A DNA stretch of 58,159 nucleotides, counting the filler, from Sphacelaria rigidula (Eukaryota): assembly GCA_964200075.2 (NCBI GenBank). It is 5 parts of 5 records of this genome, joined end to end, with 100 filler letters (N's around TTAATTAATTAA, not from the genome) between each part and the next. Parts side by side here need not be neighbours in the genome. Positions count along the whole stretch, not along the records: positions 1 to 11,554 come from CAXNAA020004795.1; 4 more parts are not named here. One strand, 5' to 3'. Each line of letters begins with the position of its first letter. Positions within the stretch are counted from its first letter, which is position 1. Shown here piece by piece: positions 4,819 through 10,771 of the stretch. A model generated the notes under the pieces. That model saw only the letters and a program-made list of their open reading frames with translations. It was not told the origin of the DNA and made no database searches. A program made the position numbers and the translations under genes.

Positions 4819-6756
4819 CTTCCATCTTAGATAGTAGCCATTGTAACCATGTAGGCGTGGAATGGAAGTAGGCGAATTGCGACCCCGACAGCCGTCACGT
4901 GTACGCATTCCCACATGCAGCACTGGAGGCAAAACCGAGAAATTAGTAACGATGCGCTTACCATAGCACCGATGCACCACGAAAGGAATGCACACGGCAC
5001 AAACCAAAACCGTAAAAAGCCGACACCGTGTGCAACATCGAAGAATCGACGTTGCCTGGCCCACCACACAACACAGGATATGACAACAGACTCTTCTTCC
5101 ATCACCAAATAATACCGCGTCCTGTAGTTTTGTACGGTCACTACGCTGAGCCGAGAATCGTCAGAAACAGGAATGAGTTACTTCCCTCAAAAGCGGGCAA
5201 AGGCTAATACGTTTGACCAGGTGCAAATCGGAAGCTCCACGACGTCACCAGCCACGTCAACTGTTTTTTTCGCGCATTTGTTTAAGTTTTTACTCGATAT
5301 TCGAATATTCTTTGGTGAGACCCGTGGTCGGATGCGAGGACAAAACACGCGCACAAACAGTGATTGAACAGCCGCTTCCGAACCGCTTCTTCTGATCCGA
5401 AAGAATATCTTCGAAAAACGGGCCCGGTGCTTGATCCAGGTGTCGGTCGAACCGTTCCTATGGGACCTCTCAGAGAGAGACAACGTCTCCGAACGGGGCT
5501 TGCCCCCTGAACGATGATTTTCGCCTCCATCGTGTCGAGAAAAACGACCTTTTACCGGAGATATCGAAGTTTGTCGACCCAGGGGATCACACAAACGCCT
5601 CCATCAAGCATGGTGCGGCCAGCTGTGTAGACAGAGAACATACATGAGGACACAGCTGTGCACGTCGAGTACAGACAGCAAGCACAGTGTACGATGCAGC
5701 GACGTTACTTTGCAGGCCGTGCCGCTGTGTAACCGTGCATCCAGTACCCACAGGTGTAGCATATAGTTGATGAGCACATGCATGCCACGCAACGGCAGCC
5801 GCATACCGCAGGGTACGTGCAGTGCAGCAGTGCAGATGGGGCAGTAAAGTACAGCAGAAATACGGACAACGGACAGGACAGCGGCCGCTTTTTCGTACAC
5901 CAAGTAAACCATTCCAATTATCACGGTGGACGGGCGTACGCGCCATTTGTTTTCGGAGTTGTACGAAACGGTTTCGAAAACTGCTGTTCTTCGTAGTCTG
6001 TCACTGGCCGACCTTTTGCTCAGTCGTCGGATCATAGCCAGCGACCTCAACAGCAAAAGGACATGGAAGAAAACACATGGGTTTGTTTCGATAAATCAAA
6101 CCACCGTGAGGTGCCGTTTGCACCTTGGACCACACATCGTTCAATTGCCGCGGGTTCACCAAGGCGAGTTTATTGTGGGGCACGGAGTTTTTCGCGGTAC
6201 CTGCAGTGTATGGCATGTGTTGTCCAAGGCCCGACATGACGTGGTCCGCATAATCTGTTTGATGACAGGGCACATGGTGGCAGAGAATCGCGATGCGGTT
6301 TCAGTTGTGAACGGGGCGTACGAATTTCCGTTTCCGTGGTATAGTACGGTGCTAGAATCGCATATTGGTGCGTAAACCAAGAAATAGTTATTATATGCAG
6401 AACACATTCCGGGCAAAGGATTCCTTGCTTGGTTCGTATTATTTTGCTGACATTTTAACTCCAAGGTTTACTTTAGTCGCCCGCCGAATACCTTTAGCAC
6501 ATATATTCATGTGTCGTGAGGTCTGCTACGCCGTTTTGTCCCATTTGTGTTCTTACGTTGGTATTTGCGTGTTTCTACAGCTGTCCCCCTAGAGCAGAAT
6601 GAGTGCCAATTACACCGAGCCCTGTGCTTTTTACTGCATCACGTGCAAAATGGACGCACGGGCCACATTTATTCCCTGTCCACACCTCCGCACGTTCACC
6701 GCATGGTCCGTCGATAACCCCTGTCTCGGTGGCATTCTAGTGGCTTTTGCCGCAGG

Positions 6757-6945
6757 GTGCCGGTTGATCGGAGTATGTGCAAGAGTCCTCGTTGCTATAT
6801 CGAGGCGATATATCAGAGTATTTACGAGCCCTCAGTGAGCTCCTTGGAGTTCATCCCGTCCAGTGAGTGCGTTCTAGATCTCAGTGTCAAACCTCTTCAG
6901 GCAAGGGGGCATCAAAGGAGTAATACCAGTTTTCGAGAGGGGTGA
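6757..6945 (+). mobile_element. Possible Ty1/Copia RNase H C-terminal remnant followed by a PPT-like tract
   Basis: 'YIEAIYQSIYE...LEFIPSSECVLDLSVKPL' resembles Copia 'HIDxxYHxIRE...xxxxpSxxqxADxxTKPL'. It is followed by purine tract GAGAGGGG (6935-6942) and then TG. Confidence 0.4.
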
Positions 6946-7548
6946 ATTTTCACAACCCTCCCGAAGTTGACGCGGTGTCTTGTTTCAGCAGGTGGTGACA
7001 GGGACGACTGATGTTTGCACAGCTGGCTATCATCATACCGGCTTGCTAGTGCCGTATGGTGGGTGCTGTAGCATGCACAACCGTCCTGCCAGTGGTAACC
7101 GCCACCATAGCTAGCGTAGAGCACCCTTTGCGCACCTACACAGGATGAGGTGACGTCTACCAACAGCACATGACAGTATGATGAAAACGTGATGGATCAT
7201 CGTGTGCTACCCACCTCGATATCACCATCTGCCTGATGCAGGCGTTCGGCCTCAATCGTTTATATGCTGAGGGAACCCACTCGCATGGACTGATGGTTCG
7301 TCCAGCCAGTGAGCCTGATGCGAGGTGCACAGAATAGAATGATCGTTTGCGCGCCGTGTGTCACGTGAATCGCGTGGGTAAAGAAACCGCACTAGCGACC
7401 TCGATACTGTAGATTTCTGCGCATCTTAAGACTTGAACATTTCACATGAGCACGGCCTGACATTGTATTTGCTGGTTGATTGGTGCAGGGTGCTACCGGA
7501 CTGGTCAACTGGTTCTCGTGAACGGGTCTGTGCCAGAGGGGATCGTCG

Positions 7549-7550
<2 letters not shown>

Positions 7551-7581
<31 letters not shown>
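7551..7581. repeat. (GCA)n microsatellite upstream of the EsV-1-7 gene ATG
   Basis: About 10 perfect GCA units. Confidence 0.9.
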
Positions 7582-7583
<2 letters not shown>

Positions 7584-7628
7584 GGAATACCGCGGCCTTG
7601 TTCCCTCTCTACTGTACTTGTAAAAGAG

Positions 7629-9485
7629 ATGCCTAGCTTGTGCACCCACACGAGTTGCACCACGGCCGCATCATTGGGCATAGCGGGTAGAAGTAAGGCA
7701 GAGTTCTGTACCAAACATGCGCGGGTGGGAATGGTCAATGTAAGAAGCAGGAGGTGCGGTGAGGACGGCTGCTCCAAATACCCATCGTTCGGTGCAACCG
7801 GTAGCAGGAAGGCGAAGTTCTGCGCCGCACACGCCCGAGTGGGCATGGCCAATGTGAAGCACGAGCGGTGTGGTAGGGAGGGTTGCTCCAAACACCCATC
7901 GTTCGGTGCAGCCGGTAGCAGGAAGGCGGGGTTCTGCGCCACACACGCCCGAGTGGGCATGGTCGATGTGAAGAATACGCGGTGCGCCAAGGAGGGATGC
8001 TCCACAATACCATCGTTCGGTGCAGCCAGTAGCAGGAAGGCGGAGTTCTGCGCCACACACGCTCGTGCGGGCATGATCGATGTAGTGAGCAAGCAGTGCG
8101 CCGAGGAGGGCTGCTCCACTCAACCGTCGTTTGGTGCAGCCGGCAGCAGAAAGGCGGAGTTCTGCGCCACACACGCCCGTGCAGGCATGGTCGATGTGGT
8201 ACACAGGCGGTGCGGCAGGGAGGGTTGCTCCAAACACCCATCGTTTGGTGCAGCCGGTCACAGGAAGGCGGAGTTCTGCCAGACACATGCCCGAGCGGGC
8301 ATGGTCAGTGTTAAGAGCAAGCGGTGTGGCAAGGAGGGCTGCATCACAATACCATCGTTCGGTGCAGCCGGTAGCAGGAAGGCGGGGTTCTGCGCCACAC
8401 ACGCGCGTGCGGGCATGGTCGATGTGAATAGCAATCGGTGCGCCAAGAAGGAATGCCCAACTCAACCATCGTTCGGTACAACCAGTAGCAGGAATGCGGA
8501 GTTCTGCGCCACACACGCCTGTGAAGGCGTGGTCGATGTGAATAGCAAGCGGTGCGCAAAGGAGGGATGCTCCACTCATCCGTCGTTTGGTGCAGCCGGC
8601 AGCAGGAAGGCGGGGTTTTGCCAGACACATGCCCGAGCGGGCGTGATCGATACGAGTAGCAAGTGGTGTGGCAAGGAGGGCTGCACCACAATACCATCGT
8701 TTGACGCAGCCGGTGGCAGGAACGCGGAGTTCTGCGCCGCACACATCCGCGCAGGGATGATCTTCGTGAAGGGTGATGACTGCGCTTCGCAGCATCATTC
8801 CAACCTGGTTCGGGAGCATGAGAACACTCACCATCATGCTGATGCTGACTTGGTCATATGGTCTGATCCCCTAGGACGTATCCGAGAAGAAACCCCTGCG
8901 AGTGATGACCTGGCCACGGGAGAGATTGGCGTCGGTATCGATGATGGATGTGAGAAGTCCGGCCATCCACCAAATGCCGGCCGCGACAAAGACGATGGTG
9001 GTCGTCACGCTGCTTCTCGTTGCAGTTCGCGTGTCATTCGTGATGGGCGAAGGGATGCAAATTCCACGACCACGTCGCCTGCCCCCTCGAGACAGCCTCC
9101 CGGCGCGGCGGCAGCAGATAAGAGTACTATAGGTGGCGCAGAGGTGCGCATGAAAATCAAAATGGAGGAGACTTCTGCACCTGCGCGAGTCCCCGAGGGG
9201 ATACGAACTAGCAAACAAACTACTGCGGGATCCAGCAGTTGGGACAGCATGGCCTTCGGCGGCTCTAGCAGGACTACCAGAAGCAGAAGTTGTGCTGATA
9301 GCATCACCGATGGAAGGACCACGAAGCGGCCTCGCCGGACGGCCGAGGTGGAGCCGATACTTGACGTGGCAACCGGGAATATTGCAATGCCTAAAGACGA
9401 TGGAACCGATGTGAAGTTAGAATCAAATGTGTCCTCCCCGTCTCATCACGTGTCCGCGGCCTCATCTCGCCTACGAAAGAGGTAG
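7629..9485 (+). CDS. Intronless EsV-1-7 cysteine-rich repeat protein (10 x 38-aa putative zinc-binding repeats plus low-complexity C-terminus)
   Basis: Uninterrupted ORF; first in-frame ATG at 7629 (MPSLC...). Repeats of 114 bp from 7641 to 8780, consensus CxxEGCxxxPSFGAAGSRKAxFCATHARAGMVDVxxxR. This matches the EsV-1-7 motif known from Ectocarpus virus EsV-1 and the expanded brown algal family that includes IMMEDIATE UPRIGHT. Confidence 0.9.
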   Translation: MPSLCTHTSCTTAASLGIAGRSKAEFCTKHARVGMVNVRSRRCGEDGCSKYPSFGATGSRKAKFCAAHARVGMANVKHERCGREGCSKHPSFGAAGSRKAGFCATHARVGMVDVKNTRCAKEGCSTIPSFGAASSRKAEFCATHARAGMIDVVSKQCAEEGCSTQPSFGAAGSRKAEFCATHARAGMVDVVHRRCGREGCSKHPSFGAAGHRKAEFCQTHARAGMVSVKSKRCGKEGCITIPSFGAAGSRKAGFCATHARAGMVDVNSNRCAKKECPTQPSFGTTSSRNAEFCATHACEGVVDVNSKRCAKEGCSTHPSFGAAGSRKAGFCQTHARAGVIDTSSKWCGKEGCTTIPSFDAAGGRNAEFCAAHIRAGMIFVKGDDCASQHHSNLVREHENTHHHADADLVIWSDPLGRIREETPASDDLATGEIGVGIDDGCEKSGHPPNAGRDKDDGGRHAASRCSSRVIRDGRRDANSTTTSPAPSRQPPGAAAADKSTIGGAEVRMKIKMEETSAPARVPEGIRTSKQTTAGSSSWDSMAFGGSSRTTRSRSCADSITDGRTTKRPRRTAEVEPILDVATGNIAMPKDDGTDVKLESNVSSPSHHVSAASSRLRKR

Positions 9486-10327
9486 ATTGAATGGAGGACC
9501 CGTGCACGCCTTTTCCCCGGCTGATGTTGGACAACCGTATCTGGGGTGCGCGGGTCACAATTTCGTTCAAATGTACACATGTCTATCAGTCTACTCGTTC
9601 CGAGGTTAAGGAGGTCAGCTGTGTTCGGTCGGTAGCTGGGGAGGCGGTGGTCGCTTAGCCACTCCTTTGCGTGAATGTGTGGTGGCGGATCGTCTCCAGC
9701 CATCATTCTCGAAGCATACTTCATCTGCTAGCTGCATCTTCGCCTGGTTATGTCACTGCTTTAAGCAGATCAACGCGTCGAAAGGTCAATTCGCAGCCTT
9801 ATGCCATACCACCGCGTCCCAATGATGCAACTGGTTCATGCAGAATCGATAATGGCGAAATATTTCGGCTTGGGATCGAGGGATTCGTCTCCTCAGGTGT
9901 ATCTGAATTCCATCTTGGAAGGCTTGAGGGCATCAGAATCCGGTAACATTTGACAACAATCGACAAGATGCGGGAGTGCTGATCTCATCGGCGATACCAA
10001 AATGTTGGGCATGCACTAGGAGAAAGATTGATGAACCCCTTCAGACTACGTTCCGAGGAGCAGGACAGGTGAAGAGGGGGGTGAAAATAATAACAGCCAA
10101 CGCGCTGCCCGTGCCACCATTGTTTTCCTCTCGATATGCAGCACCGGATACTTGTACCTAGCGGCAATAGTGCGCAAGCAAAAGGTACATTTTTGGTGGG
10201 TAACATGAAGCTTCGAACTGCTTGGCACTGCTGACATGAGGTGGCCACGTACACTGTAGTAGCACGACGCACATGCACCGTTTTGAAGGATTTCGCGCAG
10301 CTTATGTACTATTAGGGATGTGCGACA

Positions 10328-10771
10328 AACACGGGACATTACAAATTGAGGATGGATATTTTATTGGGGATGAGAAACCCGGGAAATTAAAATCTTCGCA
10401 TCCACACAAAATCTTCGAAACATGGTTCCATTTCTTCACCTACTGATAGCTGCTGACAACTGCTACACGCCATAGAAGTTTGGATCTCGATGACCGAAAT
10501 TTTGGGGTCCTAGGTGAAAAACTAATTTCGGAACCATTTCGGAGTCCGTTCGGACACCCAGAATTCCCCAAAATTGGTTTTTCACCTAGGACCCCAAAAT
10601 TTCGGTCATCAAGATCCAAAGTTCTATGGCGTGTAGCAGTTGTCAACAGCTATCAGTAGGTGAAGAAATGGAACCATGTTTCGATTATTTGGTGTGGATA
10701 CGAAGATTTTATTTCCCCGGGTTTCTCATCCCCAATAAAATATCCATCCCCAATTCGTAAGATCCGGTGTT
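10328..10771. mobile_element. Foldback/palindromic MITE family A, copy 1 (444 bp)
   Basis: Near-perfect palindrome AACACGGGACATTACAAATTGAGGATGG...CCATCCCCAATTCGTAAGATCCGGTGTT, with GACA on both flanks (possible 4-bp TSD). Homologs at 25506-25948 and 44825-45254. Confidence 0.9.

Follow-up and report, generated by a model that had tools for sequence, protein, structure and literature searches.

The gene at positions 7,629 to 9,485 of the window (the whole 58,159-nucleotide stretch of Sphacelaria rigidula DNA that was analyzed) adds a member to the EsV-1-7 family and stands outside the C2H2, TALE and PPR families. Its array of ten repeats is probably a modular, sequence-specific reader of DNA, which would work in the manner of the C2H2 array of PRDM9 without being a member of that group. 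The putative code has been narrowed to a handful of residues, the candidates being positions 9, 35 and 36 of the 38-residue unit, together with 11 and 33. In the parts of the literature available to us, the EsV-1-7 family is described as a possible new class of zinc fingers and its proteins as hypothesized transcription factors; its genes, of which the developmental regulator IMM is one, make up the largest brown-algal orthogroup. Within the literature on EsV-1-7 covered by our search, we found no ligand, no specificity residues and no site-level selection.

An earlier note on this DNA, made from the sequence alone, had described ten 114-bp units with a Cys/His scaffold, and the array is indeed as described. 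All ten units are exactly 114 bp long, lie in a single frame and carry the pattern C-x4-C-x16-C-x2-H-x12 (10 of 10). The residue pairs listed there for positions 8-9 (TA, KY, KH, TI, TQ, KH, TI, TQ, TH, TI) and the nine linkers (RSRR, KHER, KNTR, VSKQ, VHRR, KSKR, NSNR, NSKR, SSKW) proved correct when the units were read again. Position 9 is thus A, Y, H, I, Q, H, I, Q, H and I in units 1-10, and positions 35-36 are RS, KH, KN, VS, VH, KS, NS, NS and SS in units 1-9; unit 10 is without a true linker (KGDD). Tandem Repeats Finder (TRF) reports a period of 114 with 9.3 copies, 78% matches and a score of 1113, and the Pfam family PF19114 (EsV-1-7) matches the open reading frame in 10 stretches with 443 bits against a cut-off of 25. 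No other Pfam domain scored above its cut-off in the 618-residue frame, and there was no zf-C2H2 match. Coordinates are collected in Table 1.

Table 1. The array gene, its candidate specificity codons and its surroundings, in window positions.
Feature	Position	Strand	Remarks
Upstream non-coding region common with paralogues	6581..7434	+	66-80% identity, gradual fade, no sharp element end
Open reading frame, 618 aa	7629..9485	+	ATG 7629 (start inferred), stop 9485; 4-aa start, ten EsV-1-7 repeats, 234-aa tail; intron-free inside
Ten-repeat EsV-1-7 array, 38 aa each	7641..8780	+	unit k starts at 7641+114(k-1); TRF, unit pattern, Pfam
Codon 9 in every unit	offset +24..+26	+	
Codons 35-36 in every unit	offset +102..+107	+	
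Unit 1, diverged first repeat	7641..7754	+	39-52 nt differences from other units; others 15-42 among themselves
Candidate specificity codons 35-36, example	7743..7748	+	unit 1 linker (Arg-Ser)
Candidate specificity codon 9, example	7779..7781	+	unit 2 (Tyr)
C-terminal tail without Pfam domain	8781..9485	+	homologous across the genome's array family
psi-K-x-E motif IKME	9156..9167	+	
Basic NLS-like motif KRPRR	9324..9338	+	
psi-K-x-E motif VKLE	9411..9422	+	commonest family form, 38/121 sites

Taken by itself, the ten-unit array is weak evidence for a code. Unit 1 is a diverged cap that differs from the remaining units by 17-22 amino acids. There is also a weak period-3 duplication, in which KH-TI-TQ occurs twice, TRF reports a period of 342, and the mean number of scaffold differences is 9.8 at lag 3 compared with 10.2-12.7 at other lags, so that the units are not independent. 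Within units 2-9 the most varied column is 37 (five residues), followed by columns 9 and 35 (four) and by ten others including 36 (three). The concentration of variable residues is therefore modest in this gene, and it becomes clear only across the family.

That family is very large, with at least 114 arrays sampled in this genome. The closest named homologues of the gene are S. rigidula proteins, the top three being 52-58% identical to it. Searches of the genome returned 3403 and 4575 first-look candidates, 150 of which were scored in each case, and 120 loci drawn from the best matches yielded 114 non-redundant arrays with 1417 repeats; this is a sample, neither a census nor random. The arrays have a median of 12 repeats and a maximum of 37, and their repeats are basic, with a mean net charge of +3.1. 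Mean within-array entropy is highest at columns 9, 36 and 35 (1171 internal repeats). Two proteins with EsV-1-7 arrays (P0090 and P0174) are listed with methyltransferase domains (PF13847, PF13649, PF02390) or PF14223, and could be fusions or merged gene models.

Selection was estimated by pairing closely similar repeats of the same array (minimum spanning tree, no more than 15 nucleotide differences) and comparing non-synonymous with synonymous change at each codon. The resulting omega comes from pairwise counting with a bootstrap over arrays rather than from a likelihood site model, and it is inflated about 1.2- to 1.4-fold at neutral codons. Because simulation showed a further inflation at the ends of the unit, the uncentred host values (2.83, 1.83 and 2.11 at codons 9, 35 and 36) were replaced by values from codon-centred windows, in which the focal codon is excluded from the pairing and dS is taken from six codons on each side. 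With such windows (100-105 arrays, 636-724 close pairs), omega in the host is 4.11 (3.52-4.78) at codon 9, 2.37 (1.96-2.82) at codon 35 and 2.56 (2.15-3.02) at codon 36, while the remaining 35 codons do not exceed 1.41 and neutral codons in three simulations range from 0.80 to 1.48. Across the arrays, a clear excess over neutrality is confined to codons 9, 35 and 36. Judged by both per-column entropy and dN/dS, variation in the unit is neither even nor neutral, and is concentrated at three codons that diversify within arrays.

A neutral origin of this pattern, with free surface positions drifting while unequal crossover, conversion or the assembly shuffles units, is very improbable. The period-3 duplication is of the kind that such shuffling would leave, and the edge artefact in the uncentred estimate lifted neutral codons 35-36 up to 1.8. 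Nevertheless, centred simulations with crossover and conversion give at most 1.48, which lies below the lower bounds of 3.52, 1.96 and 2.15 at codons 9, 35 and 36, and synonymous divergence around codon 9 is not unusual (0.140 versus 0.125). Parts of the array recur in contigs from public runs with 0-1 differences, and free sites are unlikely to be those best kept between orthologues, as the three codons are (see below).

These results redraw the set of variable sites proposed in the earlier note, which had placed them at positions 8-9 and throughout the linker. Position 9 and linker positions 35-36 stand, whereas position 8 (87% K/T; omega 0.95, 0.69-1.22) and positions 37 and 38 (0.79 and 1.28) lie in the neutral range. 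A TALE-like di-residue at positions 8-9 is thus abandoned, since position 8 is not diversifying. The small vocabulary of swappable residues fares no better, with 427 distinct 9/35/36 triplets among 1171 repeats. Arrays differ in this regard: some are near-uniform in their residue pair (L050 is mostly KY, and L048 TL/TQ), and others are highly mixed (L020, L033). The uniform arrays would predict simple-repeat targets.

So many triplets might instead suggest that the array binds DNA with little modularity, its specificity being weak or spread over several residues and units with no transferable code. Coupling between adjacent units points the same way. Residue 36 of one unit and residue 9 of the unit after it covary (z 4.1 in the host and 3.6 in viral arrays), although residues 36 and 9 of a single unit do not (z 0.0 and 0.1), and positions 8 and 9 covary in viral arrays (z 5.9). 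Some of the signal between 36 and 9 may be due to linkage, since a distance-matched control pair, 3 to 14, gave z 3.4 in the host; mean-field covariation is weak and dominated by artefacts of invariant columns. We nonetheless regard low modularity as improbable, because very few positions combine a diversifying signal with fixity between orthologues, as modular readout predicts.

This fixity was assessed among non-nuclease homologues, which were grouped by their non-repeat sequence, leaving out the large cluster that holds the gene of the window; orthology here rests on non-repeat similarity, not on synteny or trees. Registers were aligned with positions 9, 11, 35 and 36 masked. Four of 13 tail-defined groups were dropped for want of a register signal and two of the other nine were merged, which left eight. 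The variable columns best kept in register are 12, 33, 11, 35, 36 and 9 (kappa 0.88-0.96, compared with 0.46-0.57 for columns 7, 14 and 29), and identity at 9/35/36 exceeds that at ten control variable columns in all eight groups (157 repeat pairs, p = 0.008). Among ten clusters of at least 90% identity, several of which lie within the same orthologue groups, none of 64 variants falls at 9, 11, 33, 35 or 36. The P0029/P0075 group is an example of frozen arrays, its position-9 string being H R W Q G. A held-out pair (P0153/P0306, 79% identical) kept position 9 in 6 of 6 repeats, position 35 in only 2 of 6 and position 36 in 3 of 6, the last two below its control mean of 0.73, and two other pairs that are probably paralogues (37% and 45% identical) kept position 9 in 0 of 4. 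Positions that vary between repeats, are favored to change in young arrays and are frozen in orthologues carry the signature of specificity-determining residues. The same signature would arise in any repeat that recognizes a ligand, RNA or protein included.

Relatives in giant viruses bear on which ligand is meant. A C-terminal motif, R-P-D...E-x-D-E-x-Q-H, is present in 67 of 211 homologues and, in a looser pattern, in 84 of 122 new cluster representatives. On viral contigs, at least 566 of 605 candidate stretches were confirmed, many of them on GVMAG contigs. The viral domain has an invariant set of acidic and His residues (D269, E282, D284, E285 and H288), and its model (pLDDT 84.2 overall) resembles I-Bth0305I (3r3p; Z 8.0, rmsd 3.4, 95 aligned) and Vsr (1cw0; Z 7.8, rmsd 3.4, 108 aligned). 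These scores are near the level at which Z may mean only a common arrangement, and restriction-type nucleases fill most of the top ranks. The DNA-binding motifs of I-Bth0305I lie in its N-terminal region, as far as the text available to us describes them (PMC3239194), and by analogy the viral array occupies the position of the DNA-binding region in I-Bth0305I-like nucleases. The suggestion in the earlier note that these arrays read nucleic acid is therefore strengthened by the selection pattern, by orthologue fixity and by this placement of the viral array, even though its TALE-like pair is lost.

Selection in the viral arrays falls largely on the same positions. Windows were obtained for 32-42 of 54 nuclease arrays (68-95 pairs), whose scaffold residues are strongly unlike the algal ones, and omega is 5.57 at codon 9, 4.31 at codon 11 and 2.63 at codon 36, with borderline values at codons 8 (1.97) and 35 (1.88). 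Host and viral alphabets are closest at positions 36 and 9 (Jensen-Shannon divergence 0.12 and 0.13, compared with 0.15-0.84 at the others of the 14 columns variable in both). Weak matches to Zf_WRKY19 occur in 4 of 50 viral members. The viral nuclease domain, used as a single query, had no match in the S. rigidula genome.

It is unlikely, but worth weighing, that the array reads single-stranded RNA at one or two bases per module, in the manner of PPR, PUF or CCCH proteins, with a viral domain that would be a RAP-like RNA nuclease. The order Cys-Cys-Cys-His is that of CCCH RNA-binding fingers, with a different spacing, and the patterns of selection and orthology fit any nucleic-acid code. RAP domains of RNA-binding proteins also tie with Vsr and I-Bth0305I in the fold search (9gek, Z 7.8; 9g6k, Z 7.7). 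However, the invariant acidic and His residues of the viral domain are of the type that makes up the active site of Vsr/EDxHD enzymes, and the algal tails carry NLS-like and SUMO-type motifs. In addition, a DNA transposase of Ectocarpus carries an N-terminal EsV-1-7 domain, according to the portion of the report that was available (PMC12477816).

The five-repeat model, which is of moderate quality (pLDDT 73.7, pTM 0.34), consists of separate small modules with short strands at 12-14 and 31-33, and contains no helix of four or more residues and hence no recognition helix. Its top match in BFVD is a viral EsV-1-7 protein (Q8QNQ2, E 6.5e-22, 50% identity). No match was found in the PDB by sequence, and the best match by structure had Z 2.4, a result for the five-repeat model alone that shows neither a new fold nor an absence; ESM Atlas proteins lacking PF19114 gave no usable match. 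The ligand order resembles the C2CH of THAP, and a THAP search of the genome gave zero matches, as did its controls. The repeats would bind zinc, to judge from their invariant Cys and His residues. That the strand register puts positions 9, 11, 33 and 35 on one face is our guess. The covariation of residue 36 with the next residue 9, together with an upstream Met at the place of M31 in 56 arrays, suggests that the natural module probably runs from M31 to G30.

We also consider it unlikely that the array is a scaffold for recognizing proteins, for example a receptor for viral or pathogen proteins in an arms race like that of LRR or TPR repeats. Immune repeat proteins are likewise marked by diversifying selection at few positions per repeat, and a large young expansion suits an arms race. 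Hydrophobic residues are also common at position 35 (47%) and reach 21% at position 9, which is mostly Q, R, H, K, Y or L (72% R/K/Q/N/H). In contrast, acidic residues are nearly absent from both (0.6% at 9 and 0.9% at 35, compared with 31% D/E at variable position 3), the nuclease-fused viral arrays use the same sites and alphabet, and the modelled repeats are separate, like beads on a string, and do not stack into a solenoid.

Outside the array, the tail is probably disordered, as its composition suggests, and it belongs to a family: a single cluster takes in 69 of the 71 complete tails, with those of the nearest paralogues 51-67% identical. We take psi-K-x-E in these tails to be the SUMO consensus and the basic motifs to be import signals. 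The former is present in 67 of 71 family tails compared with 7.1 in shuffles, a count that is not independent because the tails are one family, and in 28 of 62 independent tail families compared with 6.3 (maximum 14) in shuffles; NLS-like motifs are present in 54 of 71 tails compared with 14.4. The tails thus appear to carry conserved SUMO-type and nuclear-localization motifs, from which we infer that the algal protein probably regulates transcription or chromatin. The Vsr/EDxHD-like nuclease motif occurs in 0 of 71 family tails, that of the 618-residue frame included. A second version of the tail at 8937-9426, about 94% identical, is seen in public runs and could be an allele or a very close paralogue.

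Similarity at 66-80% identity extends into the flanks of 27 of 98 loci upstream and 10 of 60 downstream and fades gradually, which fits gene duplication and not a young transposon. Spread as a transposon family was rejected, there being no shared sharp termini and no near-identical copies. The nearest upstream Met of paralogues lies 8 residues before the first repeat (56 arrays) or 4 (10 arrays). About 50 bp upstream of the ATG, at 7551-7582, is a (GCA)10.7 run that matches the CAGCAG upstream motif of a preprint, as described in the part available to us (10.64898/2026.04.27.720984); GCA-type runs lie upstream of 13 of 99 arrays and downstream of 1 of 61. A CAG at 7486-7488 (plus strand) follows a T/G-rich stretch and could be the splice acceptor of a 5′ UTR intron, with no confirming joint among the matches listed. 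Two runs of one study, which we guess to be RNA, cover about 7510-10080 and also 6574-7041 but not the stretches between, across which two other runs are continuous; we give this coverage no weight as a sign of expression.

Several other repeats were observed in the window. A palindrome at 10328-10771 (221-nt arms, 89% complementary) has very high depth in public runs and recurs in the 3′ flanks of two other loci, as a foldback or MITE-like repeat would. Long stop-interrupted open reading frames at 11859-16262 (minus strand), outside the contig that carries the array, have a weak zinc-knuckle match and are probably a decayed gag-like retroelement. An AT-rich (TTATTA)n array of about 81 copies lies at 23307-23791.

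Among known systems, the gene is closest to other EsV-1-7 proteins (PF19114, including IMMEDIATE UPRIGHT and gene 7 of EsV-1), with which it shares the repeat, the host-family expansion and the lack of any other Pfam domain above cut-off. It does not have the layout of an IMM orthologue: IMM, which we know by description alone, has a unique N-terminal domain and five repeats, whereas the gene of the window has 4 residues from its inferred start, ten repeats and a 234-residue tail. The C2H2 arrays of PRDM9 and KRAB-ZNF proteins are similar in being tandem zinc modules encoded as a minisatellite, with many paralogues born, and in old genes their fingerprints are frozen. In PRDM9, positive selection acts at few residues per unit, in the part of that study available to us (PMC3890296). 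Both features, selection at few residues per unit and orthologue fixity, are found in EsV-1-7 arrays. Nevertheless, the EsV-1-7 unit is C-C-C-H with other spacing, is 38 rather than 28 residues long and has no recognition helix in the model, and the protein of the window has neither a KRAB nor a SET domain.

TAL effectors share near-identical tandem repeats with localized variation, but EsV-1-7 arrays have no adjacent hypervariable pair and no helical repeat, their triplet vocabulary is large and their variable sites are split between two parts of the unit. Membership was rejected on the grounds that position 8 is not diversifying and the model is non-helical, and membership of the PPR family because Pfam and the model reveal no helix-turn-helix repeat of about 35 residues. 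I-Bth0305I and other EDxHD homing endonucleases resemble the giant-virus relatives, which join the array to a domain that may have this fold. They differ from the protein of the window, which has no nuclease, and I-Bth0305I uses NUMOD and HTH motifs, as its available description has it, instead of zinc repeats. The protein of the window is not an EDxHD/Vsr-like endonuclease, since its tail lacks the C-terminal catalytic motif.

Returning to sequence-specific reading of DNA, which we favor, the gene would encode one of many nuclear EsV-1-7 proteins that arose in a large, lineage-specific expansion and recognize DNA sequence through chained zinc modules. Each module would fold around one zinc ion held by three Cys and one His, and would expose a few side chains that choose bases, namely 9 and 35-36 and, in older or viral arrays, also 11 and 33, while conserved basic residues (K/T8, R/K18, K19, R28, K37 and R/K38) may grip the backbone. 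In a working module from M31 to G30, residue 36 and the next unit's residue 9 would flank the C-x4-C knuckle. New specificities, arising in young arrays by unequal crossover and by point changes at the specificity codons, would be favored, whereas in old single-copy genes the string of residues would be frozen by a conserved target. In giant viruses the same chain would aim a Vsr/EDxHD-like nuclease, and the algal array would bring a regulatory tail to its sites. Nuclear location, contact with DNA, module geometry, regulatory output and the direction of transfer are all parts of this scheme that we infer. Virus or transposon targets would be a reasonable cause of the selection.

A bolder form of this proposal, which we offer as tentative and rather doubtful as a whole, treats EsV-1-7 repeats as programmable DNA readers of a new class, in which three or four residues per module (35/36 and the next unit's 9/11) would make up a transferable code. 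Giant viruses would employ these readers to retarget homing-type nucleases, while brown algae would have domesticated them into a KRAB-ZNF-like repertoire, with hundreds of SUMO-tailed regulators tracking viruses or transposons and older members such as IMM frozen on developmental targets.

Naming positions 9, 35 and 36, together with 11 and 33, makes the idea of possible zinc-finger factors precisely testable. If these residues read bases, a compact 38-residue DNA-binding unit unrelated to C2H2, TALE or PPR would become available, with natural nuclease fusions at hand. In that case, brown algae would also have evolved their own counterpart of the animal C2H2/KRAB-ZNF repertoire from a module shared with giant-virus nucleases.
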